A stretch of DNA of 64,000 nt from an uncultured Planctomycetota bacterium (lineage in GTDB: Bacteria > Planctomycetota > Planctomycetia > Gemmatales > Gemmataceae), in assembly GCA_963849325.1 (NCBI GenBank), contig CAWKHF010000005.1, forward strand, positions 160,001 through 224,000, in the 5' to 3' direction. The notes beneath the pieces are model-generated. The model was not told the origin of the DNA. It ran no database searches and was given only the letters and a program-made list of their open reading frames with translations. The number at the start of each line of letters is the position of its first letter. The stretch's first letter is position 1. Of the stretch, positions 15,010 to 34,874 are shown piece by piece. The position numbers and the translations under genes are program-made.

Positions 15010-15014
15010 CGTTC

Positions 15015-15860: not shown

Positions 15861-16047
15861 GACGTTGAACCCCTTTCCACGTAGAACGGTGTACACGTGC
15901 GGAGGGAACCAACAAAGTGTACGGTCGGCTCCGCCTACCATTGTATTCGCCGCGTCAACGAATTCATTTAGAAGAAATGGAAAAATTGCTCGGACAGGCA
16001 TCCGCCCTTTTTGCCTGCCGTAGCTGCGGCCAGGGAGGCGGTAGCCT

Positions 16048-16305
16048 CTAGCTGGCGGGGCCATTCGACGAAGACGGCAGCGCGGGGAGTTCTTCGATGC
16101 CGACAATGTGCAGAAGATCGACCTTAATCGTGTAATCGTAGACCGTCTTATTCGGCTTATGGGTCAGGCCGAGCGTGGCCGAGCGTTGACCAACCATGAT
16201 CAGGTCCGGATGGCGAATGTCATAAGTCGCTCCCGTGGTCAAGAGGATGCGGAACGGCTCAAAAGGTTGGTGACGCGCGGTGCGCTGAAGTTCTTCTTGC
16301 GTCAT
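16048..16305 (-). CDS. Small conserved planctomycete protein (PFxPF family), paralog 2
   Basis: MTQEELQRTARHQPFEPFRILLTTGATYDIRHPD...VDLLHIVGIEEL; AGGAGG RBS. Confidence 0.82.
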   Translation of the reverse strand: MTQEELQRTARHQPFEPFRILLTTGATYDIRHPDLIMVGQRSATLGLTHKPNKTVYDYTIKVDLLHIVGIEELPALPSSSNGPAS

Positions 16306-16407
16306 CGGACCTTCCTCCTTATGACGTTCAGTGTACCCCCAAGCTCCCCGCGGAACAAGGGATGGCCTTCGTGCTCGGCGCGGCGAGCTGCACAGGAGAT
16401 TGCCTCG

Positions 16408-19208: not shown

Positions 19209-20285
19209 ATGTTCTCGATGTCGCGCATCCTCCGGCATTCGGCCCTCCTGCTGGTGCCGCTCGTCGTCGCGGTTGGCTGCCAGCAACAGGCTCGGCCGCC
19301 GGACTCCGGCGATTACCTGTTCTGCTTCTGGAACGTCGAGAACTTCTTCGACAACAAGGTCAACGGCTGGAACAACGAGCCGGATCGGACGTTCGACCGC
19401 TGGTTCGGCGAGGATCGGGCCGCCTTCGAGCAGAAGGTGAAGAACCTGACGGAAGTGCTGGCCGCCCTCAACGACGGCAAAGGCCCGGACATCCTGGCGC
19501 TGGCCGAGGTCGAGTCCGAATCGGAGGCGGCCCAGGCACTGCTGGAGTCGCTCAACAAGGCCATCAAGCCGGATGCGCCGCCCTATCGACACATCTTGAA
19601 GAAAGACCTGCGCGCTGGCCGCAACATCATTACGGCGATCCTGACGCGCTTGCCGGTCGTCGCGGATCGCACCCAACTACTGGGCAAGAAGCACCGCATC
19701 CTGGAAGGCCACGTCGAGGTGGACAGGCAGGATCTGGCCATCGTGGCGTCGCATTGGACCTCGCGCGTCAGCGACGAGCACGGCGAGGGCCGCGAGAAGT
19801 ATGCCGACCAGATTTACGGCCGCTATCGCGCCCTGTACAAGGCCAACCCCGCCGTATCGCTGCTGATCTGCGGCGACTTCAACGACAACCCCGACGATCC
19901 CAGCGTCCGCGACCACTTGCACGCCACGGGCGCTCTCGATCCGGTCAAGGCGGGCGGCGATCCGCCTCTGCTGTACGACGTGTTCGCCAACCTGTGGGCG
20001 GAGAACAAGGGCGGCAAGTCGGTCGGCACGCACTTCTATCGCGGTCGGGCATTCGTCTTCGATCACCTTGTCGTGTCGCCGGGCATGGTCAACGGCAAGG
20101 GCGGCTGGCAGTGCCAGGTCGAGACGGCGAAGATCGTTACGCACCCGGATCGCTTTGTCGTGCCGCGCGGCCGCAACAAGGGACATCCCCTCGCCTTCGG
20201 CACGGAAAAGGAGAAGGTGCCGCTGAGCGAGCGCGGCGCCAGCGACCACCTGCCGGTGACGGTACGCCTGAAAGTCGCACGGTGA
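19209..20285 (+). CDS. Endonuclease/exonuclease/phosphatase (EEP) family lipoprotein
   Basis: Lipobox AVGC; FWNVENFFD, LALAEVE, SHWTSR, GDFND, FDH, SDHLPV. Confidence 0.9.
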   Translation: MFSMSRILRHSALLLVPLVVAVGCQQQARPPDSGDYLFCFWNVENFFDNKVNGWNNEPDRTFDRWFGEDRAAFEQKVKNLTEVLAALNDGKGPDILALAEVESESEAAQALLESLNKAIKPDAPPYRHILKKDLRAGRNIITAILTRLPVVADRTQLLGKKHRILEGHVEVDRQDLAIVASHWTSRVSDEHGEGREKYADQIYGRYRALYKANPAVSLLICGDFNDNPDDPSVRDHLHATGALDPVKAGGDPPLLYDVFANLWAENKGGKSVGTHFYRGRAFVFDHLVVSPGMVNGKGGWQCQVETAKIVTHPDRFVVPRGRNKGHPLAFGTEKEKVPLSERGASDHLPVTVRLKVAR

Positions 20286-20289
20286 AAAT

Positions 20290-20439
20290 CATTCACCACG
20301 AAAAACACGGAAAACACGCAAAAAAGACAAAAAGAATCTTAAATAGAATACCAAAGCCGCGGGTGTCCCCATGCAAGGGCCATTCTTGTATTTTGTCTTT
20401 GTCTTTTTTCCGTGTTTTCCGTGTTTTCCGTGGTGAATG
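20290..20439. repeat. AT-rich inverted repeat element with 9-mer tandem arms (ACCACGAAAAACACGGAAAACACG / inverse)
   Basis: Left arm 20290-20337 is complementary to right arm 20383-20439. Confidence 0.75.
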
Positions 20440-20445
20440 GTGTTT

Positions 20446-21093
20446 TCACTTCCCGGCGTCGAACTTTTCCAGTTCGATCTCGACGGTAACGTTGCCTTCC
20501 TGGATCACCTGCTTGACCATGCCGACGCCCTCGGCGTAGTAGGTCGTGATGGTCGGCTTGAGTCCGTTGACTTCGAGGTCTTGACTGCTGACGCGGACGG
20601 CCTTGTAGGCGCCGGCCGGCACCTTGACTTCCTGCTCGTCGATCCGGAAGGCGCCGCGGAAGGTCTTGCCGTCGGACTTGGAGTCCACCTTCCAGCCGTC
20701 GCCCTTCTTCGGCGGCAGCTTCAGCACGAGGATCGGTGGTTTCGGTTTGTCCTCGACGGTCTGCTCGACCGCCTGGCCGCCCTTGGGATCGGGCTGGGGG
20801 AGCCGATAGCCCAGGTCATAGCGATACACGCCGTCGGCGGTGGCGGCGAGGTGCTGCCAGGCGATGACCTTGCCGTCGCGCGTCACTTCCAGGCGCGCGC
20901 AGAGTACATCGCCGACCTTCTCGTGCTTGCTGACGCGGATGGTGAACTTGCTCTCGCCAGACCTGTAGTGCCAGGTCGCACCAACCGGGAGCGGATAGTA
21001 AGGCGTCGGGACGATCTTGTCCTGGGCCGGCAGGATGCCGCCGGTGAGGAGCAGTAGAGGACAAAGGAGCAACATCGAGATCAGCCGTTTCAT
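20446..21093 (-). CDS. Exported hypothetical protein (YYPLxxGxxWxY ... YAEGVGMVK type)
   Basis: Signal peptide; YYPLPVGATWHY, VKVPAGAYKAVRV, YYAEGVGMVK. Confidence 0.8.
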   Translation of the reverse strand: MKRLISMLLLCPLLLLTGGILPAQDKIVPTPYYPLPVGATWHYRSGESKFTIRVSKHEKVGDVLCARLEVTRDGKVIAWQHLAATADGVYRYDLGYRLPQPDPKGGQAVEQTVEDKPKPPILVLKLPPKKGDGWKVDSKSDGKTFRGAFRIDEQEVKVPAGAYKAVRVSSQDLEVNGLKPTITTYYAEGVGMVKQVIQEGNVTVEIELEKFDAGK

Positions 21094-21991: not shown

Positions 21992-22066
21992 GAACGACGA
22001 AATCGAAAGATCGAAAGGAAACAAGTGGCGGAGAACGGTGCTCACGAAAATGCACACTTCGCCCTT

Positions 22067-22140
22067 GGGCGCTTAGCTCAGTTGGTTAGAGCGCATGGAT
22101 CACACCCATGAGGCCGGGGGTTCGAGTCCCTCAGCGCCCA
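22067..22140 (+). tRNA. tRNA-Val (anticodon CAC), CCA not encoded
   Basis: GGGCGCT/AGCGCCC acceptor stem, TAGCTCAGTTGGTTAGAGC D-arm, CATGG-ATCACAC-CCATG anticodon arm, GGTTCGAGTCC T-arm. Confidence 0.93.
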
Positions 22141-22180
22141 TTGCCATCCTTTCGAGGCGAATCGCCTTGCCTCTACACGA

Positions 22181-23361
22181 TCAGTTTTTGTCCTTGTCCC
22201 GCGCCTCGTGTGCGGCCGCCTTCTCGGCAACGTAGGCGAGGATCCATCCCGTCGCCGCGTTGCGCGCGAAGTACAGCTTTTTCTCCCGGTCGAAGTGAAA
22301 CTCCGAAGACAACGCCTGGAGGATCTCGGCGCCGGCCAGCAGTTGACGCGGGTCTTGGTACACCTTTTTGACGCGCTCGATCTCTCCATGAGCCGTCTCG
22401 CGGAGCTTGGCATCTTCAATCGTCGAGAGATCGATCTTCGGAAAAACGTTCGGCGTCCGGAGAAGTAGTTGGCGGTAGGCGGCGATGTCGTCGGCGGTCA
22501 AGGCCACGTAGCTGCGGCGATCGCTCGGCCGAACGAGAGAGGCCATCGCCCAGACGGCGCCGCCGCTGAGATAAACGTGCTTCCGCTGGAGCAACTCCGG
22601 CTTGGCCTCGATGTCCTTCCGCAGAGCGGGGACAAGGATCTCCACGCGAAGAGCAGCGCTGGTCTCCGCGTATTTCCCTTTCTCCGCGCGTTTCTCGACC
22701 AGGTCGGCGAAAGTCACCGAGCCGTAAGGTATGCTCACCGTCGCGTACTCCTTGCCGGACTCGCGGTAGCCGCCCTTGGTGTTGCCGCCGCCGATGTCCA
22801 GCAGCAGGGAGTCGGCCGCGCGCTTGGCGGGGACAATGCCGGCGATGGACAGCTCGATCTCGCGTCGCACGTCAATGAAGCGAATCGGCAAACCACAGGC
22901 TTCTTGCACGGCGGCGGCGAGGGTTCTCTTGTTCGCCTCAATGGCTTCCTTCTTCGCTCCCAGGGCGCTGAAGAGACCGCTACTGCCGACGACGTAGATA
23001 CGGTTGTCGGGAATTTTATGCTCTGTTCGCATCTGCTCGGCGAATTTCGCCACCGCCGCGCTCGTCTCCCGGAGATGCCGGCTTCAAACCGATCGGCGGA
23101 GGCCAGACCCGCCGTCAGGGCGGTGTTCTTGGTGCAGCTCAGGAGGATCTTGGCCTCGTAGCCGTCGGTGCCGTCGGTGACATCGAGAACGGTTGCCTTG
23201 ATGCCTTTGGCGCCAATCTCGATGCCGCCGTGAACTTCGGCGCGGCCTTGCGCGGGCAACCCCAGACCCAGGATCGCCACCAGCAAGATCACGGCGATTC
23301 GTCGCGGCTTAACAATCCGGAAACGACGACAAAAACCAAGCGAAGGAGCCGTCATGGCCAT
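22181..23361 (-). CDS. Exported Ppx/GppA-like (ASKHA fold) phosphatase (frameshift near 23070)
   Basis: Signal-like N-terminus; GGIEIGAKGIK, LLLDIGGGNTKGG, IPYGSVTF, VYLSGGAVWA; GGAGAGG RBS. Confidence 0.75.
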
Positions 23362-23396
23362 AACCTCTCCCTTGATGAAGCCACCGGAATCGACGC

Positions 23397-26300
23397 TTAC
23401 GGCCCTTGGACGCAGACGACACGAAATCCGGTGTAATGGTCTGTCCTGGCCGGCTCAAGCTTATCGCGGTGCGTGCAACGGCAATGACAGGGCTTTGCAG
23501 AAGGCGTCGGCGTCCGTCCAACTCACGCTCTCGACGGGAAATTTCGTGGTGTCCCCGGAGCGAACCGCGGATTGCTGTTGCCCTCCTTCGCTGTACGCGC
23601 TGGGGTTGCTCCCCATGACCGTTTGATACTGCTCCTGCGTCACCTCGTGAGCACCCATGAAGAAGTCGGCTGGGATCACGACTTCGTGCTGCTTCTCGTC
23701 CTTACCGCGTATGGCATTGGTAGGCGATCCCATCAAGAATGTCCCTTTGGGAATGGGCATTAACCGCATCCCGATCGAATTTTGGATGCCCCTCCTCTCG
23801 GTTTGGCCTCCGGGCTGCGGTCGATGCACCTCGCCCTTGTCCAACGGTCCAACAAGCTTCGCCAACGGCGATCCCTCCAGCCGGACCAGCAAGGGGCTGG
23901 CTCCTACCACGTTGCCGAACTTGTGAGGAGTCTGGAGCCTTGCTCCGGTGTAAGCCTTGCTCTCCGATTGCATGGCCTCCTCCACATAGACAGCGAGCCT
24001 TCCCCAGGTTACTTTCCCGGAGACGGCATCCTTCGCTTCGCCGCGGAGCCCCTTCAAGACAAAGTAGAAGAAGACGCCGTGTTGCAAACGCGGACTCTCG
24101 TAGGCCAGCTGTCCGCTCTTGCAGCTGAACATGGCTGCTAACCCGGCAGGAATGAGAACTTTGTTGTAATCCACGCTCAGCGAGCGCGAAGCGGGCAACT
24201 TCTTATGCTCTCGGCAGGCATCCATCAACAGCAGTTTCGCGCCCGCCCCGCACTTGCCCAGCGTCTCGAGCATCAAGTCCTTGATATTGATTAAGTGCTC
24301 ATTGTAGCCCGTGGCGTAGTCGGTGCCGTCAACGTCAAACTGGGCATCGCTGGGGCAGAAGAAGGGGTAGATGCAATCGTCCGGCGATGCTTCTCCCTCC
24401 GGACGAGTCGAGCGACGTGCCCCGGCGCCGGGCGGAGGCACCATCAATTCGACGCCGTGACTGGCCAGCGCCACTAGGACCGTCTCCTCGCGCGTTCGCC
24501 GGCCGGTCAATTCCTGGAGTGCCTTGCGGATGTTCGCCGCCGTCGGCTTGTCTGCAGCCGTCTTGCTGCCGCGCGAGCTGGTCAACACGCGAACGCGGCC
24601 GTGAAAGGGCGACCCTGGCCTGTCAAGCAGCCGGCCCAGTTCCTCGACATCGTTTTCCGTATATTTCAGCTCGTCCAAGCCCGAACGATCGAAGGTTTTG
24701 ACGCCGATGAGGAGAGCGTAGGCTTTGCTCGGCGGCTTCTTGCCATCCTTTTCGCCTTGCAGCAGCTCGCGGACTTCGGGCAAATCGACCTCATCGGGGA
24801 GGCCTCCCGCTTTGAGGGTGTTGTAGGCGGCCAGGCGGACTCCCGGCTCCAGGTCGCGCAAACACTCCACCAGCCCCGCATAGGCGGCATCCTGGCCGGC
24901 CTTGCCGTAGCTGGCCAGGGACAGGGCCGCGTTCTGCCGCACCTGGGCATCGTCGTCCTTCAGCGCGTTCTTGAGCAACTCGATGATCTCTTTGCGTTTG
25001 TCCTCCGGGAAAGAATCCAGCGATAGCGCCGCATAGCGGCGAGCCTCTTTGCAATAGGCATCGTCTCTCTTGTCCTGCAGGGCAGCTTTCAGCGCCTTGA
25101 ACTGCTTATGCTCCGGCGGGCCGATTTCCCTCAGCGCCTTTTTGGCGGCCCGGCGAACCGCATCGACCTCGGTGGGTTCGCGGAGGATCTTCAACAGAGC
25201 GACGGCCGCCCTCTGGGCCTCTGGGCCGAGCTTTCCCAGGTCGTCGGCTGCTTCTTTGCGCGTCTCCGATTCGGCAGCCTTCAGCTTTTGCAGCGACTTA
25301 TTGACTCCATCCACCACCCGCGTTTTGGCGTCCTCATCCGAGTCTTCGGGGAATTCCTTGTCCAGCTTCTGCCGGTACGCCGTCCGAAGAAACCTTCGCA
25401 CTTCATGGACGTGAATGTGTCCAGCATTCAGGACACCATCCGCGTGCATGGTGTGGACGCCGACGAGGTAGCCGCGGCTGTCCACCACAGCACCTCCGCT
25501 ATCACCGGGGTTGGTGGCAACGGAGCTGGCGATGACCTCGGCCTGCCGCTCAACGGTCTGTCCTTTGTAAACCCAGGTGTTGAAGGAAACCTGCCGAACC
25601 GCTCCGGAACTGTAGATCCACACGCCCAGGTTGCCCTTGGGTTTGCCGCCGACGGTGTGCAGCGGCTGTCCCGGCCGGATGGTTCGCCTGCTGAGCCGGA
25701 GAGCCTTCACGCCCACCGGCAGCCGATCCAGGTGGATCAGCGCAAGATCACAGGTCGCTTGATCGTAGACAAAATCCGCAGGGATGGCGTGTTTGGGCTT
25801 TTCCTTTTTCAAATCGTTCAAGTAGACTTCACTCTCCGTCACGAGCTTGCCATCTCGGATGATCGGGAAGAAGACCACAATTTCTTTCTTGCTGCGGTTA
25901 GCAACGTGTTGGGCGGTGAGCACCATCTGCTTCTCTCGATCAATCAGCGATCCGGTTCCGTACCCTACGTTGCCGTTCGCGTCCTGCGTACGAATCCACA
26001 CGCACGACTTGAGCATTTCGTTGTACAACTCGTCGCTGGTCATCCCGCTGGCGTCCGCCTTGACGCTGGCGTCCGTCTCCAGGGTGCGCTCCGTCTCCGG
26101 GCTGGCGTCCGTCTTTCGCTCGGCGTCTTTCTTCCGGTCGGCGTCCTTCTTCCGTTCGGCGTCCGCCTTCGGGGCGGCTGGATTATCCTTCCGCGCGACC
26201 GTCTCCTGGGACAGAGTGCTCGAAGGGAGCTTCCCTTCGAGAAGAGAAGGGAGCAGAAGGATGGCACCGCCGAGGAGGAGGCCCGTCAGGGCGCTTACGC

Positions 26301-26487
26301 CCAGAAGGAGCGGGCCGCAGCCCCGACCGCGTGGCTGCGCGATGGCGGTGCTCGCATTCGCCGACTTCTCGGCGCGGACGACGACGCGCATTCGCTGACC
26401 GCAATTGCCGCACGGCCACACAACTCCACTCGGAATGTTCTCCGAACTGAGCTCTGTTCGACACTCCGGGCAGGTGTACGTGAACAT
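23397..26487 (-). CDS. Multidomain protease: Zn-ribbon, TM, trypsin-like, HEAT repeats, caspase (C14), FGE-sulfatase/CLec (internally deleted)
   Basis: CPEC..CGNC; TM helix; LTAQHV / DLALI / GDSGG; HEAT repeats; ALLIGV..SHG..MDACR; NSIGMRLMPIPKGTFLMGSP. The in-frame stop is at 23461, but a C-terminal GFRVV segment in another frame ends at 23397. Confidence 0.88.
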
Positions 26488-26543
26488 GGTCGTGTCTCCG
26501 TTCGGCCTTCGCTGCGTCGAGCGTGTTGGGCCTCGTGATGCAG

Positions 26544-26654
26544 GCTTTTCGGAGTTGACGGATGGTGCGAGTATTATCGGCTCAAGAACCAAGGGATGGA
26601 TCGGGCCGGTAAAGGACGCTTTTCGGAGTTGACGGATGGTGCGAGTATTATCGG
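26544..26654. repeat. Exact 37-bp direct repeat x2 separated by a 37-bp spacer
   Basis: GCTTTTCGGAGTTGACGGATGGTGCGAGTATTATCGG at 26544-26580 and 26618-26654. Confidence 0.9.
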
Positions 26655-26675
26655 GGCAGCCTGTCGATTCCGCAA
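26647..26675 (-). promoter_or_regulatory. Putative sigma70 promoter TTGCGG-N17-GATAAT for the multidomain protease
   Basis: Minus-strand hexamers with 17-nt spacing; the -10 box lies inside the 37-bp repeat. Confidence 0.45.
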
Positions 26676-26706
26676 GGGTCATTTCTTCGATTTTCATTTT
26701 CGTCGA

Positions 26707-26753
26707 GACCCGCAACGTCAGCGAGGGAGCGTCCTTCGCTGACGCGGCGGGCC
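26707..26753. repeat. Imperfect REP-like palindrome (CCCGCAACGTCAGCGAGG / CCTTCGCTGACGCGGCGGG)
   Basis: Inverted arms with a CGTCAGCGA core. Confidence 0.6.
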
Positions 26754-26768
26754 CCGACGAAAATGCGC

Positions 26769-29030
26769 CTATTTCGGCTCCGTCCTCCACTTCAAAACCC
26801 GCATGCCGTGCTGCTCGGCGAACGACGGAATGAGCACGCTGCGAGCACCGGATCGATACATCGCGTGCTCCAGCAGCTGGCCCAGCGGCGACCGCAGACC
26901 CTGACTGCGATCCACGGTTCGCGCTCGCCGCAGTCCGTCTTGGGCCAGGGCCGTGAAGTTCATCGGCGGGTTCGTCGCCGGCGTGGCGATCACCACCAGG
27001 TGCTCCGGGCCGAACGGCGGCTCGTCTCCGACCTCTCCGTGCGGCGGCGGCGTGTCCAGCGTACGGCCGGGTGGCACGGTTTTGCCCGCCTCGTTGGACT
27101 TGGGGTAGAACGCCTCGATCTGAAAGTCCGCGCCGATGGTCAGCAGCGTCACGTCCAGCGGCGATCGGCTCTTGTTGTGGATGCGGAACGAGATCCGATC
27201 GCCCGGCCGGAACACCCACCCTTCGGCCGGCTGCCGCAGCACCTCGCCGCGATCAGACGGGTTCTTGTGCCCCAATACCTCCACGTCCAAACCGACAAGA
27301 GAGCTGCCGCGGTACCGCTGTCCCTCGAAGCGGCCCGCCAGCGCGAGCAGGTTACGCGCCCGATAGACTTTCTCCAGATTGTGACGCAGGGCGTCGATCC
27401 ATCCGACGTTGTCCAGGTCCGGCAGGGCGAACGGCTCCCGGTTGCCCGAGGCCTCCACCAGCTGGAGCTTCCCCTTTTCCGGACGTACCAACCACTGTGC
27501 CTGCCGTGGATCTTCCACGTACTCCACCAGTCCCTCCTTCGCTTCGGCGAGAGACTGGACGGCCTTCCGTAACCGCTGCCGCAGCGCCGCCTGTCCGTCC
27601 GGGACCTGGACGGCCACCTTGAAGCGCCGTAGGCTGTAATCGACGAGCACCGGCCGGCACGTCGAGAGCAGCGGCAGCTTCTCCACCCGCAGCGATTCCT
27701 CATCGGCGCACGGCTCGACGGTCGCGTCGAACGGTCGGATGTCCTGCACGCGGACGTGGCCCAGCAGCTTTGGCTTCTCTCGCCCGCCGGCAGGCGACTC
27801 CACCGCCAGAATGCTCCCGGAGGTGAGCCCGTGCAGCGCTCCCGCATTGACCTTGTAGCCGTCCTCGTCTCGGCTTAACAGCAAGGGCGACCGCAGTGGT
27901 TGCTCCGTACCCAGGACGACGCGATCCTGTCCTCTGCCCTCGACCAGCGGCGTCGGCGAGCCTTGCGGCCGACCGGCGTACTGGATCTGGAGGCGTTGGA
28001 CCAGTTCTCGGTAGGTCAGCGGCGAGGGCGACTCCGCCGACTTGGTGAGGATGTCCACCAGGTTATAGGTGAGCAGCCCATAACACTTGGCGTCCCGCGA
28101 ATCGGCCGGCTGGGGACATTCCGGCGTCGTTTCCTGCGGCCGGCAGGCGTACACCGCCACCAGGTAGTCGGAAGGCTCCTGCGGTACGAACGGAGCGGAC
28201 TTGGCCGACGATCCGCCGCGTGTCTTCCCCTGCCGCCGAGCCGCCCGCTGCCGGGCCTTTTCCAGCTCCTCTCGGGGCATCAGGGTATCCGGCGGCAGTT
28301 CGCGGACGACCTCGACGCCGCGGGTCATGGTTCCGGAGTGGCAGCAATCGAAGATGATCCAGACGTAGGCCTTCTTCGCCGTGATGGCCCGCAGCCAGTC
28401 GCCGATCTCATTATCGATGATGGCGTTGTGTACCCTCTTGGGGCTTCCCTCGCTCTCTTTCACGTCGGCCGGAAGGAAGATCTCGTCAATGCCGTCCGGC
28501 TCGGGGTAGCGTGGATCGGGAGGATCGCTCTCGGGCTGACGATCGCCGTGGCCGGACAGCAAGATGAGGATCTGATCGCCTTCGCCGGCCTGGTCCGCCA
28601 GGCGGCGGAACTCGCGCGCGATGTTCGCCCGCGTCGGCCGACGATCCCGGCGGCCTTCGTCCTCCGTCAAGGCGACGATGCCCTCGGCCGGAAATCGAAA
28701 GCGTTTCGTCAACAACGTCCGCATCAGCCGCACGTCGTTGGCCGGGCCGGTGAGGTGGACTCTCTCGGGCAAGTGGTCGTATTTCGTTATGCCCACTAGG
28801 AGCGCGAGCCTGTGGACGTCATGGGCAGCAGGAGCGGGATCCGCTTCCGAGGTCCGAACCTGCGCGGCAGTCGCCTGTACGAGTTTGAGCATCTCCGATG
28901 GCGCATTCCCTTGGATCGGCCGGCCGGCATCCGCTCCCCGCCGGCGGCTTCCTCCGCAACCGAGGGAAAGCCCAGTGACGATGAGGACGACGCTCCCTGC
29001 CGCAAGGAGGGGTAAATTCAGGCGACTCAT
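26769..29030 (-). CDS. Caspase (C14/metacaspase-like) lipoprotein with C-terminal DUF4384-like domain
   Basis: Lipobox-like LSLGC; LALLVGITKY, GPANDV, LSGHG, IFDCCHSG catalytic dyad; C-terminal FRPGDRISFRIHN...PPFGPEHLVVIAT. Confidence 0.88.
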   Translation of the reverse strand: MSRLNLPLLAAGSVVLIVTGLSLGCGGSRRRGADAGRPIQGNAPSEMLKLVQATAAQVRTSEADPAPAAHDVHRLALLVGITKYDHLPERVHLTGPANDVRLMRTLLTKRFRFPAEGIVALTEDEGRRDRRPTRANIAREFRRLADQAGEGDQILILLSGHGDRQPESDPPDPRYPEPDGIDEIFLPADVKESEGSPKRVHNAIIDNEIGDWLRAITAKKAYVWIIFDCCHSGTMTRGVEVVRELPPDTLMPREELEKARQRAARRQGKTRGGSSAKSAPFVPQEPSDYLVAVYACRPQETTPECPQPADSRDAKCYGLLTYNLVDILTKSAESPSPLTYRELVQRLQIQYAGRPQGSPTPLVEGRGQDRVVLGTEQPLRSPLLLSRDEDGYKVNAGALHGLTSGSILAVESPAGGREKPKLLGHVRVQDIRPFDATVEPCADEESLRVEKLPLLSTCRPVLVDYSLRRFKVAVQVPDGQAALRQRLRKAVQSLAEAKEGLVEYVEDPRQAQWLVRPEKGKLQLVEASGNREPFALPDLDNVGWIDALRHNLEKVYRARNLLALAGRFEGQRYRGSSLVGLDVEVLGHKNPSDRGEVLRQPAEGWVFRPGDRISFRIHNKSRSPLDVTLLTIGADFQIEAFYPKSNEAGKTVPPGRTLDTPPPHGEVGDEPPFGPEHLVVIATPATNPPMNFTALAQDGLRRARTVDRSQGLRSPLGQLLEHAMYRSGARSVLIPSFAEQHGMRVLKWRTEPK

Positions 29031-29100
29031 GGATTCCACCTCTTACCGAAGGCAAATGCCGGCGACACGTCGGCGAAGCGTCGCCAACCGAAGGCAAGTA

Positions 29101-32100
29101 TCAGCGCCAGTCGCCGGAGAGGACGAAGGCGGCCCAGACGTAGGGCGGCGGCGATCCCTCCCGCGTCAGGCGCTTCAGCCCGCCACGGGGCTTCCAGTTG
29201 TCCAGCATCCATAATTGCGCCTGCCGCATCGCCTCCGCCTTGGCCATCGGCTTGTCCGACCACACGAGACGATAGAACTCCCGCATGAGCTGATGGGTCT
29301 CCTCATCGGGCACGCTCCACAGGCTGGCCGCCACGCTGCGCGCTCCTGCCAGCTGGAAGGCACGCTGCAAGCCCAGCACGCCCTCGCCGCCGGCCACCTG
29401 TCCCCGGCCAGTCTCGCAGGCGCTGAGCACCACCAGCTCCACCTTGCCCAGGTCCAGCTCGCCGGCCTCCAGCGCCGTCAGGATCGTCTCTTCGGGCCGT
29501 CGATCCGTGCGGTTGACACCGGCGAACACCACGCCCGACAGCAAGCCGGGATGCCGCCCCGTGGCCTCGACGCGCAGCCGCAGGCCGTCACGCAGCAGCG
29601 CGGCCCTCTGAGCTACATCCAGGGCGGACTTCTCGGATTCCGCCGCGAAGAAGCCGTGCGTGGCCAGATGCACGAAGCGATGCGACGGGACCGCGGCCAG
29701 AATGGCTTGCTTGGTGGCCCTGTCCTTGCGCAGCACCTTGGGCGCGGGGGCATCGGGGAAGGTGTCCTCAAACTGGGCGCGCAGGTCGTTGACCTCGCTT
29801 TCCGAGCCGGGCAACCTCTTGAACAGAGGCAGCGGTGGCAGCTTGCCGGGGCGGATTTCGCTGTCGGCGGCTTTTCGCTCGCCGAAGTCGATGCCGCCCG
29901 CCAGCAGCAGAGACGGCTGTTCTCCGGGCGGCCGCGGCTGGCGGCGCAGCAACTGGGGGAGCAGTTGAGGAACGGGGATGGTGGCAAAGGTGTACTCGTG
30001 GACCAGGAACTTACCTGGCTCGGCGCCGGGCAGGGCGGCCAGCGGCAGGCCGTGCAGCGGGCCGTCCGGCGACACCAGCACGACTTTCACGCCCTTGAGG
30101 TGTTTCGCCAGCGGTTCCCACAGGTGCTGGCGCAACTCCGCCGCGGGATCGCCCGTGCCTTCGAGGGGCATCTTGCCGGCACCGTAGCTGGCGCGCCAGC
30201 GGTCGATCCGCTGGGCCATGAGCCGCGACACCCCCAGCGGCACGATGGTGACAGCCTTCTGCCCCGGCCGCACTACGAAGGCGAGCAGTCGTCGTTCGCT
30301 GGACGGTTCGCCATCCCTCGTGGCCGGGGCCGTCCAGTGGAGATAATCAACGAAGTCCAGCAGGGCCACATCGCCGGCCTTGCCGAGGGCGGCGCGGATG
30401 TCATCGGCTTGCAAGTGCGTCTGTTCCTGTAAGGCGCTGTAAACGGCGCTGCGGTCGCTCAACTGCCGCTCGATTTGGGCGCGTTCCTCCGAGAGGCTCC
30501 GGATTCGGGCGGCCGCGGCCTGCGGCTGGTTGCCTGACGCTCCTGGCTGGTCGGATACGGACAGTCCGGTCAGTTGCCGGTTGATGTCGCGCAGTCGGGC
30601 GATCAGGCGAGCGGTGTCGGGATCCTTGGTATCGCGGAGTAGCCGGGCCAAGCGTTGCTGGGTGGTGACGGAGCCTTTGACGTGGACGACGCGCGTGTAG
30701 AGTTGGTCGGGTTCGGCGTCCCTAGTTAGTGATGCCGGGAGCAGAAGATCGAGGCAGCCGGAGGTGAGTGCAGCCGTCGTGAACTGTTCCTGTTCGGCCT
30801 GGGCCACTGCGAGGCGAAGTTGCTCGGCGTGGTAGAGATCCGTGGCCTCAGCCAGAGCCAGCGTAGCTTGCTGGAGATCTCTTCCCGAAATCAAAGTCAC
30901 AATTCCCAGATTGTAGAGGCTTAGTGCGATGTCGGGATGGTCGGGAGGCAGGGTCTTGCGACGGATGGCCAGTGCTTCCTCAAGGCTCTTCTTGGCCGCC
31001 GCGTACTCCCGCAGCACATCCTGTAGGCATCCTAGGTTGTTGAGGCTTAGTGCGATGTCGGGGTGGTCGGGAGGGAGCGCCTTGCGGTAGATGGCCAGCG
31101 CTTCCTCATAGCTCTTCTTGGCCGCCGCGTACTCCCGCAGCTCCTGCTGCACATTCCCGAGGTTATTGAGACTCTTGGCGATGTCGGGGTGGTCGGGAGG
31201 GAGCGCCTTGCGGTAGATGGCCAGCGCCTCCCCATGACTCTTCCGGGCCGCCGCGTACTCCCGCAGATCCCGCTGCACAACCCCCAGGTTGTTGAGGCTT
31301 TCGGCGATGTCGGGATGGTCGGGAGGCAGGGCCTTGCGGTAGATGGCCAACGCCTCTTCGTGGCTCTTCCGGGCCGCCGCGTACTCCCGCAACTCTTGTT
31401 GCACGAATCCCAGGTTGTTGAGGCTTTCGGCGATGTCGGGATGGTCGGGAGGGAGCGTCTTACGGTAGATGACCAGTGCCTCCCCATAGCTCTTTCGGGC
31501 CGCCACGTATTCCCGCAGCTCCTGCTGCACAAGCCCTAGATTGTTGAGGCATATGGCAGTATTGAGATGGTCGGGGGGCAGGGCCTTGCGGCAGATGGCC
31601 AGCGCTTCCTGATAGCTCTTCCTGGCCGCCATGTACTCCCGCTGTTCCTTCTGCACAAGTCCTAGGTTGTGGAGACTGTTGGCGATATTGGGATGGTCCG
31701 GGGGCAGCGCCTTGCGGCGGATGGCCAGTGCTTCCTCGTAGCTCTTTCGGGCCGCCGCGTTCTCTCGTAGATACCACTGCACAAGCCCCAGGTGGTTGAG
31801 ACATATGGCGGTGTGGGGGTGGTCGGGCGGCAGTGCCTTACGGTAGATAGCCAGCGCCTCCTCATAACTCTTCCTGGCAGCCGCGTACTCCCGCAGATCC
31901 CGCTGCCCATTCCCGAGGTTGTGAAGGCTGTCGGCGATGCGGGGGTGGTCCGGGGGCAAAACCTTGCGCCGCATAACCACCGCCTGCTCGTTGGACTCCT
32001 TCGCCCCGCGCGCGTCTTTTCGCCCCAAACGGGGACGTCCTAACAAGTGCCACACACGAGCCGTCTCGGCGGAATCTTGCGGCAGCACCTCCCGGAACGT

Positions 32101-32668
32101 CTCCAGTACCTCCGCCGCCTTGCGCTCCGCCTCCTCATACTTGCCCTGTTGGTTCAGACGGATCGCCTCCTGTTCCGTCCGCAACGCCCTGAGTATCTTG
32201 GCCCGCTGCCCCGCTTCCAGACCGGCCATCTTCTCCGCGAAGGCCAGCGCTCGCCGGGCATCGCCGGTACGCCAGTGCTTCTCGCCGTCCAGCTTTTGCC
32301 GCAGCGTCAGTGCCTCCTTGCGGTATTTCATGGTCGCGGAGAAGTCGCCCGATAGCTCTTGCAGCTCCGCAGCGCGTGCGAGGCTCTCGGCTACCTCGGC
32401 GTGTTCCGCACCCCATACTTCGCGGGTCAATTGCAAGGCCCGAATCGCGTGGTCGAGCGCCTCAGCATACCTGCCTTGGCCAAGCAACTGCTCGGACTCA
32501 CGACCAAGCCTCTCACGCTCTGTCAGCTTGGCCTTTTGCTCGGCCGTCAGCTGAGGAGGAGGACTTTTCCTCGCGGCCTCATCCGCGGCAGGAGGCGCTC
32601 GAGGCACCCAGTATCAGCAGGCAACTGAGCAAAGCCGGAACGCCGAGGCGGTATGCGGTCTTCATCAT
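29101..32668 (-). CDS. Exported TPR (42-aa repeat) + CHAT protease protein
   Basis: Signal peptide MMKTAYRLGVPALLSCLLILGA (frameshift near 32590); TPR array; VSPDGPL, VHLATHGFF, LVVLSACETG, WAAFVLSGDWR. Confidence 0.93.
30905..31972 (-). repeat. Tandem 126-bp (42-aa) TPR repeats, 8 full + 1 partial
   Basis: Repeating RKALPPDHPxIAxSLNNLGxVQxxLREYAAARKSxEEALAI. Confidence 0.92.
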
Positions 32669-32716
32669 CTCATCCTCGTGTGCCAACCCAATGCCTTCGA
32701 GCCACCGGACCAAACG

Positions 32717-32783
32717 GGCGAGCGGGGTTGCGTCAGCACCCCGAGAGACAGACCCTCGGGGCGCTGACGCAACCTCGCTCGCC
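32717..32783. repeat. REP-like palindrome (GGCGAGCGGGGTTGCGTCAGC type)
   Basis: Inverted arms related to families D and E. Confidence 0.75.
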
Positions 32784-33238
32784 AGGCTTGTCTGCCAGTT
32801 CCAGGGGCTGGAAGCGCAAGACGGCCGGCGCCAAACAGACGAAGTTGGCGATTCGTGGGGGAATGCCTTGCCAGCGCCGTATCTCGAAGTGCGCGGCCAC
32901 GAAATCAATTTGGCGTAGCGGCGAGGTCGGAAGGTTGCGCCGCTTCGGTGCGGTGGACATCGCAGCATCTCGCATCGGCCGACAAGGAGGAGACAAACAT
33001 GGAAAGTAACTTACATCAGGGATCGATTCAAGTACCTATTTGTCCCGATGGACAGATAAGAAGACCTAACGATTTGCCGACAAGCCCGGAGCGTCCGCGA
33101 CGGGTGGGCATCGAGGAGCGTCACCACGCGTTCGTCCCGCACGCCGGCCGTACTCATCGACCTCACCCGTTTCGCCGGCTTGGGGCAAACGATGTGCCGG
33201 AATGAGAAGCCGAAAGTGCGGGGAAGGGCCGCCCGCGT

Positions 33239-34557
33239 TCACAGTTCGGCGAGCGGCGCCGTGGCGTCGCCGAAGCGCTGGGCCGGCACTCCCATCCGCC
33301 GCAGCAACGACAGATACAGACTGCACAATTTGCGGTTGTCCTCGACGCGCTCCGTGTAATCGAGGACTCGGCCGGTAGCAAGTGTCCCGCCCAGGCCTCC
33401 CACCAGCAGCACCGGCAGCTTGCTCGAATCGTGCCGACTGCCCGACCACATGTTCGACAGGAACATCAGGCACGAATTGTCGAGTACGGTGGTCTCCCCT
33501 TCGCGCATCTCGGCCAGGCGTCCGGCGAGATACGCCAACTGGCTCACGTAGTAGCGCGTCACCCGTTCGTAGGCGTCGGAGTTGTCTTCGTGCGACGTTG
33601 GGTGGTGGGCCGTCCGCACGTCGAGGAACGGGTAGAAGAGGCCGGAGAGGTCTCGGCACAGCAGCAGCGTGGCGACGCGCGTCTTGTCGGTCTGGAAGGC
33701 CAGGGCAACGATGTCGCACATCAGCCGCATGTGCTCGCGGATGTCTTCGGGCAGGCCGTTGTCGGGCCGGCGCATGGCGAGGACGGGCCGACCGCGATCG
33801 CGCGCCCGCTCCTCGGCTCGATGGGTCGCGGCGCGGCTGCGCTTCACGCGCTTCTCCACTTCGCGCACGCTGGTTAGATATTCGTCGAGCTTGGCCCGAT
33901 CCGCGTGACTGACCTGGCGGCGCAGCGCCGCGGCCTGTTCCTGGACGCGGTCGAGAATGCCGATCGTCCGCCGGCTGCCCTGGTTGTCGAAGAGGCTGTC
34001 GAAGGCCAGCGACGGATAGACCTCCATCGGCACCGGCGAGTTGGCGTTCTGCCAGGAGATGTGCGAGCTGTAGGCCATCGAGAAATTCGTTTCGTGGTAG
34101 CCGGTGATCGGCTGCTCGCAGCCCAGCACGAGGCTCGGTTGCGCCGTTTCTTCTCCCAGGTGGCGGGCCAGCACCTGATCGACGCTGACGCCGCCGCGCA
34201 GCACGGCTCCCTTCTGCAGGGCGGCCCCCGACAGAATGTTGCCGGTCTGGCCAGGGTGGATGCCGACGCCCATCGCCGCCTTGTTGAACAAGCCGGAGAT
34301 GACATTCAACCGTGGCCGCAGGGCAGACAACGGTTCGAGGCTCTTGCTCAATTGCATGTCGGGGCCGGAACCTTTGGCCCACCAATTTTTGGGGCTGATG
34401 CCGTTGCCCATGAACAGGGCCGCGAACCGCCTGGGCGCGCGCCGGCCGTCGCTTCGCTGCCCCAGACCGGAATCGATTCCAGCCAGGGCAGGGCCATCGT
34501 CACGCCCACGCCCTTGAGCAAGGTACGCCGGCTGATTTTGTTCGACTGTTAGTTCAT
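33239..34557 (-). CDS. DUF1552 family protein (Tat-like N-terminus; start region damaged)
   Basis: ISRRTLLKGVGVTMALPWLES, FMGNG, SVDQVLA, HISW, LDEYLTSVREVEKR, LAFQTDKTRVAT, TVLDNS. TAA two codons after the apparent ATG and a frameshift near 34440. Confidence 0.88.
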
Positions 34558-34602
34558 TATCTCAATCCTCAAACAGGTGTCTGCAAACACCCATTCTTCC
34601 AT
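34549..34602 (-). pseudogene. Truncated PIN/VapC toxin remnant (MEEWVFADTC...)
   Basis: 17 codons directly after the antitoxin-like gene; VFADT matches the VapC first-strand 'VxxDT' motif. Confidence 0.5.
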
Positions 34603-34615
34603 CGGGACTCACCCG

Positions 34616-34834
34616 TTATTGCGGGAAATCAGGCTCCGCTAATTCGAGTCTCTCCAGTTCTTGCCAGTTGACTTCAAACTCGACTTTACCGGAGACAGCC
34701 TTCAACTCACGCAGCCGGCCAAGCCGTAAAAACTCTCGTGCGGCCTTGGAGATGGCTTCAGCATCATTATCGAGCTTTGTAAGCTGCTTGAGGGCAGCGA
34801 TTTCTTGAGAAGTCAACTCGATGGTGATACTCAT
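34616..34834 (-). CDS. VapB-like (RHH) type II antitoxin
   Basis: 72 aa MSITIELTSQEIAALKQLT...AEAISKAAREFLRLGRLRELKAVSGKVEF; typical VapB/DUF2191 layout. Confidence 0.65.
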   Translation of the reverse strand: MSITIELTSQEIAALKQLTKLDNDAEAISKAAREFLRLGRLRELKAVSGKVEFEVNWQELERLELAEPDFPQ

Positions 34835-34874
34835 GGCCCGATCTCCGCAACCCAGTTTCGCTCCTTGAGCAGCC

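Follow-up and report, generated by a model that had tools for sequence, protein, structure and literature searches.

Csx29 is the TPR-CHAT protease of the type III-E CRISPR "Craspase". Its domain order, with a TPR array first and then a CHAT caspase-like protease that has His and Cys residues, is shared by g1, the first of four genes (g1 to g4) that we analyzed in a window of 64,000 nucleotides (the whole stretch under study, from contig CAWKHF010000005.1). The DNA comes from a soil-type planctomycete of the Gemmataceae. Unlike Csx29, g1 and its orthologues bear signal peptides, from which action outside the cytoplasm would follow, and neither Cas7-11 nor a CRISPR array or a Csx30-type partner was found here, the neighbor of g1 being a gene for a caspase-DUF4384 protein (g2).

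With prokaryotic orthocaspases and metacaspases, g2 and the C-terminal half of g3 share the C14 fold and the His-Cys dyad. FGE-sulfatase and DUF4384 are among the accessory domains listed for these proteins, and members with an N-terminal helix or signal peptide, or with a predicted extracellular location, have already been reported (PMC3501461, PMC7475262). Indeed, Asplund-Samuelsson et al. (2012, PMC3501461) assigned 98 of 671 prokaryotic metacaspases to the membrane, mostly through an N-terminal helix or signal peptide, and placed 30 outside the cell, so that an earlier sequence-only reading of this DNA was too strong in calling clan-CD proteases usually cytoplasmic. However, a conserved pairing with an exported TPR-CHAT gene, the upstream membrane kinase of some relatives and a fusion to a ZnR-TM-trypsin-HEAT protein are absent from the features described in the available portions of these two sources.

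Multi-peptidase or NTP-dependent conflict systems, attributed to multicellular or aggregating bacteria (Kaur, Burroughs, Iyer and Aravind 2020, PMC7159879), resemble the cluster in their caspase, trypsin, FGE-type lectin fold, TPR and HEAT domains, the planctomycete GYF-trypsin, membrane-near zinc ribbons, the idea of a peptidase cascade and an enrichment in planctomycetes. However, their defining cores, MoxR-vWA, DO-GTPase/GAP1 and STAND, are missing from this cluster, and the terms "Ppx" and "signal peptide" have 0 occurrences in the available text of that paper, whereas the cluster proteins are predicted to be exported. Single-domain matches (TPR, caspase, protease, HEAT) were all that PADLOC reported, without assigning a system, and the cluster proteins stayed below the cut-off of every NCBIfam model; the locus thus matches no named system, as had been proposed. 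On balance, we favor reading it as two independent adjoining extracytoplasmic modules, A (g1 and g2) and B (g3 and g4), in a variable stretch after a tRNA-Val gene.

By ORF and Pfam analysis of the window, the four genes are all encoded by the minus strand, in accordance with the co-orientation first described, with gaps of 61 nt (g1-g2), 281 nt (g2-g3) and 99 nt (g3-g4). Catalytic residues are retained in all four protease domains, and the motifs noted earlier (THG/SAC, GHG/DCC, SHG/DAC and H/D/GDSGG) are readable in the translations. The reported adjacency to tRNA-Val was also confirmed, 40 nt separating tRNA-Val(cac) from the g4 stop codon. TatA and this tRNA gene are kept in all three same-genus genomes compared, while the DNA beyond the tRNA is different in each (DNA, tblastx and Pfam comparisons), and window positions 22144-32700 have no DNA match in these genomes. 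The tRNA gene is therefore a synteny break, and the cluster sits in a variable region directly after it. No integrase and no tRNA-derived direct repeat were found within the window. The palindromic element upstream of g1 belongs to a multi-copy family in the same-genus genomes (many short matches on both strands, at query positions 714-788 of the segment 32000-46000 of the window). The hairpin that begins 4 nt past the g2 stop codon, within the 281-nt gap, occurs once in the window and is strongly stable (-59.8 kcal/mol, z -7.35, equaled by 0 of 200 shuffles); it likely marks the boundary between the two modules.

Table 1 Features of the cluster and its borders, in window coordinates.
Feature	Position	Strand	Basis and remarks
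tRNA-Val(cac)	22066-22141	+	ARAGORN; convergent with g4
g4, signal-peptide Ppx/GppA-fold (ASKHA) protein	22181-23361	-	Translations; Pfam Ppx-GppA, 31.4 bits
Out-of-frame FGE C-terminus remnant (...HYTGFRVVCVQGP)	23385-23484	-	Translation, tblastn second segment, blastn, protein comparison
g3, whole ORF, 1008 aa, start MFTYTCPECR	23461-26487	-	Pfam: Trypsin_2, HEAT, Peptidase_C14, FGE-sulfatase
g3 C-terminal half, caspase and shortened FGE-sulfatase, stop at 23461	23461-24726	-	Pfam; blastn to L102 nt 7162-8441
g3 FGE-sulfatase	about 23485-23757	-	Pfam
g3 caspase domain	about 24028-24723	-	Motifs ASHG and MDACRE
g3 fusion junction	24727-24744	-	blastn coordinates, nucleotide and protein comparison
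g3 N-terminal half, zinc ribbon-TM-Trypsin_2-HEAT	24745-26487	-	Pfam, hydropathy, blastn to L102
g3 HEAT repeats	about 24763-25335	-	Pfam
g3 Trypsin_2	about 25456-25959	-	Pfam
g3 TM	about 26233-26319	-	Hydropathy
g3 zinc ribbon	about 26383-26487	-	Pfam/hydropathy of N-terminal half
46-nt direct repeat, two copies, 91% identity	26535-26654		Repeat search; g2-g3 intergenic, upstream of g3 start
Hairpin, perfect stem	26695-26765	-	Inverted repeat search and RNA fold; directly after g2 stop codon
g2, caspase/orthocaspase with C-terminal DUF4384, 756 aa, intact	26769-29039	-	Pfam, hydropathy
g2 DUF4384	about 26979-27212	-	Pfam
g2 Peptidase_C14	about 27987-28811	-	Pfam
g1 main ORF, TPR-CHAT protease, 1168 aa	29101-32607	-	Pfam and translation
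g1 CHAT	about 29107-30147	-	Pfam; motifs HLATHG and LSACETG
Eight tandem 126-nt (42-aa) TPR units in g1	30898-32079	-	Repeat search; 60-83% identity to reference copy
g1 signal-peptide/lipobox-like start (MMKTAYRLGVPALLSCLLILGASSASC)	32579-32668	-	Three-frame translation, sequence, hydropathy
Palindromic repeat element, 38-nt arms	32708-32792		Inverted repeat search; just upstream of g1

The description of g2 as a lipoprotein caspase with a DUF4384-like domain held: the ORF is intact, Peptidase_C14 (74 bits) and DUF4384 (27.3 bits, cut-off 27) are both matched, and the single N-terminal hydrophobic segment (residues 6-30) ends in a lipobox-like LSLGC. Its orthologues, 35-48% identical, all have signal peptides. 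For g1, the CHAT domain (215 bits, cut-off 24) and the TPR part (nine TPR_10/TPR_12 units, 296 bits for TPR_10) are real, but the signal peptide attributed to this protein (MMKTAYRLG...SASC, start at 32668) lies in a frame other than that of the main ORF and is ended by a stop codon at about 32579, the frame break falling somewhere in about 32582-32613. In the g1 orthologues, a signal peptide is followed by the same TAEQ.AKL.ERD motif.

In the hydropathy analysis, each protein showed a single hydrophobic segment, at its N-terminus. The orthologues of g1, g2 and g4, and those of the caspase-FGE half of g3, have kept signal peptides, and the trypsin-HEAT half of g3 has an N-terminus with a zinc ribbon and a single TM segment, also conserved. 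With such N-termini in orthologues of every gene, the export proposed earlier is borne out, and the proteins are very likely extracytoplasmic.

To follow g1 and g2 in relatives, 20 loci around g2 homologues were compared. A TPR-CHAT gene is present within the fetched locus in eight of them, three of which (L068, L069 and L074) have the same gene order as g1 and g2. The linkage is by no means general: the other 12 have no CHAT, although several of these are short contigs. None of the 20 has a Ppx-like match, g4 query included. Within this genome, TPR-CHAT genes stand beside three of the four g2 paralogues. Genomes G130 and G140 have only two CHAT genes each, yet in each one of the two adjoins a g2 homologue, so that chance pairing has a low probability. 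The two closest same-order loci, orthologous loci in G130 and G045, read Pkinase, TPR-CHAT, caspase, and a divergent ECF sigma factor gene lies near the G130 locus. In each of the two Ser/Thr kinases a TM segment is accompanied by a periplasmic tail of about 190 aa; one of these tails, that of G130, gives a weak DUF4384 match below the cut-off (E 0.018). No kinase was found within 15 kb of any of the three pairs in this genome (E 1e-8). As a Gemmataceae genome carries about 100 kinases (PMC11032199), a kinase nearby says little by itself. In terms of predicted proteins, module A is a recurrent pair in which an exported, lipoprotein-like TPR-CHAT protease is accompanied by an exported caspase-DUF4384 protein.

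In module B, the g3 product had been described as a membrane-anchored trypsin-HEAT-caspase-FGE protein; the anchor (one TM segment at residues 57-85, after a zinc ribbon) and the domains are present, but the FGE domain is without its core and the gene is a fusion of two. In the nearest relative, the metagenome locus L102, each half is a gene of its own, as it also is, among the matches listed, across 150 family genomes. None of the 150 listed matches from these genomes spans both halves, and the best non-self match among them covers residues 568-882 only. The N-terminal half is 67.7% identical (blastn) to L102 nt 2197-4090 and corresponds to the first ~600 residues of a separate 1038-aa gene product there. 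At the junction, g3 tracks L102 gene 2 to ...VRELLQGEK and then L102 gene 4 just past its signal peptide; nothing here corresponds to L102 nt 4091-7161, a stretch of 3071 nt (blastn and sequence comparison), and no signal peptide is hidden in any frame at the junction. The C-terminal half is 42% identical over residues 31-427 to a 565-aa caspase-FGE protein of locus L089. Its FGE-sulfatase match covers only profile positions 7-109 of 255: 381 nt of the FGE core (L102 nt 8442-8822) are absent at about 23485 (tblastn, blastn and protein comparison), and the last ~25 residues are found in another frame. By these comparisons g3 is probably a deletion-made in-frame fusion. Judged on one close relative and on the general family architecture, both the 3.07-kb and the 381-nt differences would be losses here; they may alternatively stem from assembly collapse.

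The L102 cluster is intact and encodes, in order, ZnR-TM-trypsin-HEAT, ZnR-GYF-TM-Ppx-like, SP-caspase-FGE and SP-Ppx-like proteins (gene order and Pfam), its gene 3 being a Ppx-like paralogue (hhalign probability 100, E 7e-44). Loss of about 3.07 kb from such a cluster would have joined the reading frame for the trypsin-HEAT protein to that for the mature caspase-FGE protein and, at the same time, taken away the anchored Ppx-like paralogue, and an additional 381-nt loss would have taken away the FGE core. Jointly with the two-module reading, we thus lean toward module B being a deletion remnant of a larger cluster still intact in L102. ZnR-TM proteins with trypsin and/or HEAT domains occur near Ppx-like genes in five of nine longer genome loci and, among the 37 metagenome loci that reach 8 kb or more, in eight. 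The only two homologues of the g3 trypsin domain detectable in this genome adjoin its two Ppx-like loci.

For g4, the assignment to a signal-peptide ASKHA/Ppx-like protein stood as to fold family and signal peptide (with the motif GGIEIGAKGIK in the translation), but the gene is split over two frames (N part 22735-23361, C part 22181-23083). Its unsplit relatives have 364-389 aa, and the sole gap in a 486-nt alignment with its closest relative, in L102, is 1 nt at 23076/23077. In a Foldseek search with the structure model of a g4 orthologue (pLDDT 88), GppA/Ppx came first (E 1e-15), the predicted fold matching E. coli GppA, Aquifex Ppx/GppA and other Ppx at 1e-15 to 1e-12; the secreted Legionella NTPDase1 of the GDA1/CD39 group came next (1e-9). 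The Ppx-like family profile matches GppA at 3e-6, and the phosphate-loop Gly residues and the aligned Glu166 and Asp187 are conserved. However, this family is exported, only about 370-390 aa long, and forms a pair of secreted and membrane-anchored paralogues beside kinases and trypsin-HEAT proteins, and a member scored 57.8 bits with the NCBIfam exopolyphosphatase model, far from the cut-off of 307. It also has Glu for the first-loop Asp and an invariant NTK for the STE motif of Ppx/GppA. As the invariant Lys occupies the site of the STE Glu, the case for the hydrolyzing effector once proposed is weakened.

Conserved linkage of the four genes, the lack of which the sequence-only reading had itself named as refuting it, did not appear around the Ppx-like family either. 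Among 78 metagenome loci and 18 genome loci (two of the latter being the same contig), not one showed CHAT; the 18 also lacked a g2-type caspase (tblastn), and the one metagenome locus of the 78 with a caspase is L102. As far as these loci go, g1 with g2 and g3 with g4 recur separately, and the four-gene "cascade operon" is not conserved as a unit.

From the domains and neighborhoods, a function in envelope proteolytic sensing or signaling is likely. Ligands from the envelope or of foreign origin would be bound in the periplasm by repeat and lectin-like modules (TPR, HEAT, DUF4384, FGE), which would gate Cys and Ser proteases that cut periplasmic or membrane targets. In intact relatives, cytoplasmic zinc-ribbon tails and neighboring kinases would pass the signal inward. 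The Ppx-fold proteins would more likely be a secreted and anchored pair that binds or processes a phosphate-rich ligand than the terminal effector of a caspase.

The modules could also be anti-phage or anti-competitor devices with several peptidases, sensing invaders at the envelope and responding by proteolysis, possibly suicidally. This proposal concerns purpose and is compatible with the two-module anatomy; we hold it only tentatively, as rather unlikely. It would fit the variable region at the tRNA, the PIN and integrase genes and the transposase flanking the orthologous pairs of G130 and G045, the strong expansion of the protein families by paralogy and the near-identical tandem TPR repeats of g1. 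Caspase, trypsin and FGE-type domains, peptidase cascades and the planctomycete GYF-trypsin occur in predicted conflict systems (PMC7159879), for which periplasmic sensors have also been predicted (Dore et al. 2024, PMC10907252). However, NTPase cores (MoxR-vWA, GTPase, STAND) are absent from the immediate flanks as well as from the cluster, PADLOC matched single domains only, the window has neither an integrase nor a tRNA-derived repeat, and the ECF sigma factor and kinase linkage in relatives fits envelope signaling equally well.

Real frameshifts in g1 and g4 would leave three of the four genes broken, and with the two deletions the locus would then be a decaying, non-functional remnant in which only g2 is intact. 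Two frame breaks and two deletions inside 10.5 kb, the missing anchored Ppx-like partner gene and the absence of the cluster from the three same-genus genomes point in this direction. We consider it unlikely. This assembly is error-prone: rpoB is broken into 4 pieces, rpoC runs over at least 3 frames, and within the window dnaE and cstA are split as well, so that the two 1-nt breaks are probably assembly errors; with the essential genes rpoB, rpoC and dnaE broken in the same way, such shifts are uninformative here. Moreover, the fusion frame of g3 is open over 1008 codons, topologically coherent and with all catalytic motifs kept, and GC3 is still high (0.79-0.81 for g1, g2 and the C part of g4).

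A single operon in which a periplasmic cascade runs from TPR-CHAT to caspase to trypsin/caspase, with the exported Ppx-fold hydrolase as terminal effector, is quite improbable: co-orientation, the two short gaps, predicted export of every product, the catalytic residues, a signal-peptide trypsin gene after TPR-CHAT and caspase-DUF4384 in G121 (L069) and the L102 caspase speak for it, and against it stand the missing CHAT and Ppx-like neighbors, the strong hairpin and 281-nt gap, the recent deletion fusion in g3 and the invariant Lys. That L102 caspase gene, directly upstream of the trypsin-HEAT gene on a contig that ends before any CHAT gene could be visible, is a different paralogue (29% identity to g2 over the caspase domain), and its position makes a looser association of a caspase with module B possible.

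The four co-oriented genes of the locus (g1 to g4) are built from known domain families, which are tabulated below together with those of L102, a close metagenome relative with an intact cluster of the g3/g4 type. From the sequence alone, they had been described as a single operon of exported proteases ending in a Ppx-like enzyme; the observation was confirmed in part and its interpretation partly supported, and the anatomy that is well supported is one of two modules of exported proteins, A (g1 and g2) and B (g3 and g4), with a deletion fusion in the latter.

Genes of the locus (window positions) and of the L102 cluster; ZnR, zinc ribbon; TM, transmembrane segment; SP, signal peptide
Feature	Position	Strand	Content
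g1	29101-32607	minus	nine TPR_10/TPR_12 units and CHAT (Pfam)
TPR repeat array in g1	30898-32079	minus	eight head-to-tail 126-nt units (42 aa each), 60-83% identity to reference copy
g2	26769-29039	minus	Peptidase_C14 and DUF4384 (Pfam)
g3	23461-26487, from MFTYTCPECR	minus	Trypsin_2, HEAT, Peptidase_C14, first ~100 positions of FGE-sulfatase (Pfam)
g4	22181-23361	minus	Ppx-GppA (Pfam)
L102 gene 1			SP-caspase; different paralogue, its caspase domain 29% identical to that of g2
L102 gene 2			ZnR-TM-trypsin-HEAT protein, 1038 aa
L102 gene 3			ZnR-GYF-TM; C-terminal 340 residues Ppx-like by hhalign (probability 100, E 7e-44)
L102 gene 4			SP-caspase-FGE, 612 aa, complete FGE
L102 gene 5			SP-Ppx-like protein

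All catalytic motifs listed in the sequence-only reading were found in the translations of the four genes. The CHAT domain of g1 (PF12770, residues 821-1166) passed the gathering cut-off with 215.1 bits against 24, and its translation contains both HLATHG and LSACETG, which we take to be the CHAT His/Cys dyad. Peptidase_C14 was matched in g2 (74.2 bits, cut-off 21.4; SGHG and DCCHSG readable) and in g3 (52.3 bits, same cut-off; ASHG and MDACRE readable), and g3 also carries Trypsin_2 (PF13365, 56.4 bits, cut-off 27.6) with readable TAQHV, CDLAL and GDSGG, the His/Asp/Ser triad being assigned by motif only. The repeat array of g1 suggests a recent expansion or homogenisation of its TPR units.

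Two of the genes are less tidy than first described: the TPR-CHAT gene is present, but the signal peptide proposed for it, starting at 32668, is out of frame and runs into a stop at about 32579, and the Ppx-like gene is present but lies in two frames, a single base (at 23076/23077) being the sole gap in 486 bases aligned to its nearest relative. The window (G000:C5:160001-224000, where G000 is the genome under study) comes from an assembly of 8.16 Mb in 14 contigs, 84.7% complete and with a GC content of ~65%, in which rpoB is in four pieces, rpoC spans at least three frames, a second secA-like gene is fragmented and several CHAT and caspase paralogues are likewise frame-split. Small indel errors are pervasive in this assembly and have to be weighed for each of its gene calls. 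Since rpoB, rpoC, dnaE, cstA, the secA-like gene and the paralogues are also split, single-base frame breaks are uninformative in G000, and those of g1 and g4 are probably assembly artefacts. Within the window, the PHP, pol III alpha and finger/HHH domains of dnaE (57965-60971, plus strand) are spread across three overlapping frames, cstA (16045-18188, plus) is divided between two frames, and a DUF1501 gene (45463-46841, plus) is broken into two pieces.

Conserved linkage of all four genes was not borne out, as g1/g2 homologues and Ppx-like genes were not found together in the loci retrieved from relatives. No g1 or g2 homologue was found by tblastn in 18 loci around Ppx-like relatives (two of them on the same contig), nor any Ppx-like match in 20 loci around g2 homologues. 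When metagenomes were scanned with an alignment of 35 Ppx-like sequences, 78 loci were recovered: none has CHAT, 1 has a caspase, 8 have trypsin and 12 have a Ser/Thr kinase. Of these loci, 37 are 8 kb or longer, and among them kinase occurs in 9, trypsin in 8, HEAT and FGE in 2 each, caspase in 1 and CHAT in 0. The g2-g3 gap (281 nt, compared with 61 nt for g1-g2 and 99 nt for g3-g4) holds a duplicated 46-nt repeat and, 4 nt past the g2 stop, a hairpin of -59.8 kcal/mol (z -7.35; none of 200 shuffles equalled it). A sigma-70 promoter scan returned 0 sites, and the 6 terminator-like sites are no more than shuffled sequence gives (mean 9.2), which leaves the scan uninformative. The locus illustrates how recent deletions, together with an assembly of low accuracy, can lend two modules the look of a single elaborate operon.

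The predicted tRNA neighbour does exist, tRNA-Val(cac) lying 40 nt past the g4 stop on the opposite strand. TatA and this tRNA are kept in all three same-genus genomes, the genes after the tRNA differ in each, and window positions 22144-32700 have no DNA match in any of them, the region being variable within the genus. An integrase-borne island at the tRNA found no support, as there is no integrase among the Pfam-scanned ORFs of the window and the 25-nt tRNA-Val 3′ end occurs in it once at up to 3 mismatches, with no far-border repeat. On the far side of the DUF1552 gene, positions 34549-39258 also lack a DNA match in the three same-genus genomes and so are a candidate for another variable segment; the ORFs there (34969-36657, 37496-38314 and 38422-39213) have no Pfam match.

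The comparison with L102, a 10.3-kb contig with five genes on one strand and a Ppx-like gene of 83% DNA identity to g4, accounts for the architecture of g3. The g3 product tracks L102 gene 2 to ...VRELLQGEK and then gene 4 from just past its signal peptide, and L102 nt 4091-7161 (3071 nt), comprising the remainder of gene 2, the whole of gene 3 and the gene 4 signal peptide, have no counterpart in the window. Among the 150 matches listed from 150 family genomes, with 287 weaker ones ranking below them, none spans both halves of g3, which are found there as separate ZnR-TM-trypsin-HEAT and caspase-FGE proteins. A 1-nt assembly error as the source of the fusion was dismissed, because the junction shows neither a hidden signal peptide nor a stop in any frame and because L102 has 3071 nt that the window lacks. 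With the halves separate in L102 and the family genomes, the 3071 nt absent and the frame open across the junction, g3 is, judging from these alignments, a derived in-frame fusion of two parts that would both already have been periplasmic. The gene had been read as trypsin-HEAT-caspase-FGE; the trypsin, HEAT and caspase parts are present, but the FGE domain lacks its core. Its match to FGE-sulfatase (PF03781) covers profile positions 7-109 of 255, compared with 6-254 of 255 in L102; residues 428-534 (107 residues) of a 42%-identical caspase-FGE protein (L089) are missing; L102 nt 8442-8822 (381 nt), which encode the FGE core, are absent from the window; and the motif that ends the domain, HYTGFRVVC, is read in another frame a short way downstream. 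A DGR as a possible cause of the truncation was considered and set aside.

Elsewhere in the family, Ppx-like genes are found in related company. Closer relatives carry a secreted and an anchored Ppx-like protein beside ZnR kinases and trypsin-HEAT proteins, and in two genomes (G061 and G095) the order is ZnR-TM-HEAT, ZnR-Ppx paralogue, ZnR kinase with a C-terminal TM helix and secreted Ppx-like gene, accompanied by a divergent ECF sigma factor and an FHA-kinase. In three others (G012, G107 and G029), Ppx-like paralogues are adjoined by trypsin-HEAT or GYF-trypsin genes. In G000, one further homologue of the g3 trypsin domain could be detected, and it adjoins the one other Ppx-like locus of that genome (C5:432.7-435.4 kb). 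At this locus outside the window (G000:C5:432680-435361), a frame-split ZnR-Ppx-like paralogue, 58-69% identical to that of the same-genus genome G107, comes first and the gene for the trypsin homologue second. In G029, a locus on contig C1272 (L047, 5319-11662) encodes a GYF-trypsin, a ZnR-Ppx-like paralogue, a ZnR kinase and an Hsp70-family protein in the slot held by the secreted Ppx-like gene in other genomes; here one ASKHA protein seems to have taken the place of another.

Then we analyzed the Ppx-like family itself. PF02541 scored 31.4 bits for the C part of g4 and 46.6 bits for the L102 orthologue (cut-off 27), and the NCBIfam models TIGR03706 (57.8 bits, cut-off 307) and PRK11031 (25.5 bits, cut-off 624) stayed far below theirs. 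A structural model of the g4 orthologue P0002, built with the family alignment (pLDDT 88.2, pTM 0.82), retrieved Ppx/GppA in the top 37 listed Foldseek rows (E 1e-15 to 1e-12, target-normalised TM at most 0.76), followed by the secreted Legionella NTPDase1 (E 1e-9); the family is thus predicted to adopt a two-domain ASKHA fold closest to Ppx/GppA. In sequence the family is distant from Ppx/GppA, its profile giving 3e-6 against PDB GppA. A profile alignment to GppA and Aquifex Ppx shows that the glycine loops, Glu166 (the EEE Glu) and Asp187 are kept, that the first-loop Asp (DxGSNS) is replaced by an invariant Glu46 and that the Ser-Thr-Glu of DxGGGSTE is replaced by an invariant N192-T193-K194, so that the conserved acidic set of the Ppx/GppA phosphate loops is incomplete. 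The Glu of STE contributes to catalysis in Ppx/GppA. If that Glu is catalytic, the Lys found in its place here may mean a different chemistry, or a protein that binds a ligand without hydrolysing it. An exported Ppx-fold family with an invariant Lys at this acidic position is a concrete biochemical target. Relatives are encoded in at least 544 metagenome stretches. Of 150 other family genomes, 13 have one at an E value of 1e-20 or lower, and a single-sequence search with P0002 in genome contigs gave 4 loci; homologues with source names come from Gemmataceae. Matching ESM Atlas clusters were unnamed or Ppx/GppA only, and searches of open-access literature turned up no account of exported Ppx-GppA proteins from planctomycetes.

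Module A recurs independently. Of 150 other family genomes, 24 encode a g2 homologue; none of the 3 same-genus genomes does. A TPR-CHAT gene adjoins the g2 homologue in 8 of 20 retrieved loci, three of which (in G130, G121 and G045) repeat the gene order of the window, and adjoins 3 of the 4 g2 paralogues of G000. The pairing is above chance, since G130 (9.0 Mb) and G140 have only two CHAT genes each, one of which, in both genomes, lies beside a g2 homologue. Two further caspase-DUF4384 and TPR-CHAT pairs of G000, outside the window (C2:225457-233420 and C12:24207-34473), have the caspase first, and their caspase genes are frameshifted. In G130 and G045, the pair is preceded by a Ser/Thr kinase whose single TM helix leaves ~190 residues as a tail on the outer side of the membrane. 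PIN and integrase genes follow the pair of G130, which also has an ECF sigma gene in divergent orientation; a transposase follows that of G045. One of these two kinase tails, that of G130, gave a sub-threshold match to DUF4384 (Pfam, E 0.018), and a profile HMM of the C-terminal 190 aa of 7 g2 orthologues matched neither tail. No kinase was detected within 15 kb of the three module A pairs of G000 (E 1e-8). Complex prediction for the g1 TPR region (20-575) with the g2 DUF4384 region (575-756), using a 13-row alignment, scored 0.00, which speaks neither for nor against binding. No description of a TPR-CHAT/caspase-DUF4384 pair was found in the open-access literature searched.

The extracytoplasmic topology proposed earlier is supported at the level of prediction, each protein having one strongly hydrophobic segment, at the N terminus (hydropathy), and SP or ZnR-TM starts being kept in orthologues. 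N-termini were judged by eye for 5 g1-type, 7 g2-type, 7 Ppx-like and 3 caspase-FGE orthologues. Four of the g1 type (L068, L069, L074 and L076) carry a signal peptide followed by a TAEQ.AKL.ERD motif, as at the start of the main ORF in the window, and the fifth (L072) shows no clear signal peptide from the chosen start codon; signal peptides were found in the seven g2-type, the seven Ppx-like and the stand-alone caspase-FGE proteins. In the longer Ppx-like paralogues, as in the trypsin-HEAT proteins, the N terminus is a zinc ribbon followed by a linker and one TM helix, which places the catalytic parts outside the membrane. Discussion of caspase-like proteases in bacteria centres mostly on effectors of death or defence in the cytoplasm, and here whole families of them are predicted to be consistently exported and to recur as gene pairs. 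Exported orthocaspases are not new: in the survey by Asplund-Samuelsson et al. (2012, PMC3501461), 98 of 671 orthocaspases were classed as membrane proteins, mostly with an N-terminal helix or signal peptide, and 30 as extracellular, and FGE-sulfatase ranked fifth among partner domains.

The TPR, HEAT, DUF4384 and lectin-like FGE folds would probably serve as binding modules that gate periplasmic Cys/Ser proteases, and the cytoplasmic zinc-ribbon tails and the kinases or ECF sigma factors of the intact relatives suggest signalling across the membrane. Planctomycetes have an unusually large periplasm, and the membrane kinases and ECF sigma factor of the relatives point to proteolysis-based sensing in it. 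A conflict or defence purpose is compatible with the same anatomy, in the sense of Kaur et al. (2020, PMC7159879), where the MoxR-vWA, GTPase-centric and STAND systems have a core NTPase in the neighbourhood; however, Pfam found no MoxR, vWA, GTPase or STAND domain in the four genes and their flanks, PADLOC recognised no system at the locus, and neither PADLOC nor NCBIfam returned a system or family name. The type III-E CRISPR Craspase, which pairs Cas7-11 with the TPR-CHAT protease Csx29, does not fit the g1 locus, as PADLOC found no Cas match among 7 locus proteins, the sole tandem array at window positions 21-34 kb is the TPR coding repeat rather than a CRISPR array, and Craspase is cytoplasmic whereas g1 orthologues carry signal peptides.

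Within the periplasmic sensing proposed here, a more specific arrangement can be drawn, which we consider rather unlikely. The secreted and anchored Ppx-fold pair, the ZnR tail-anchored Ser/Thr kinase and the ZnR periplasmic trypsin-HEAT protein would form a transmembrane receptor for an extracytoplasmic ligand of the nucleotide or polyphosphate type, with the anchored paralogue keeping its Zn-ribbon/GYF tail inside and its ASKHA domain outside, and with the shared zinc ribbons assembling the kinase. The exported caspase-type proteins (caspase-FGE and, separately, TPR-CHAT with caspase-DUF4384) would be the executioners of the periplasm or would process signals there, and the window variant would hard-wire the trypsin-HEAT anchor to the caspase. 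Such a receptor, if real, would be of a previously undescribed kind, a bacterial analogue of ecto-nucleotidase/purinergic signalling.

Two further features of the window were recorded. Two adjoining genes, each combining TPR with a sulfotransferase domain (Sulfotransfer_3), lie at 1113-2897 and 3508-5715, both on the minus strand, with a Cupin_8 gene alongside. A palindromic repeat copy lies at 32708-32792, just upstream of g1, and the same repeats occur at about 12549-12618, 14940-15014, 20285-20459 and 42339-42420; these elements of ~60-170 nt, present in many copies and on both strands in all three same-genus genomes, look like a REP/MITE-type family.
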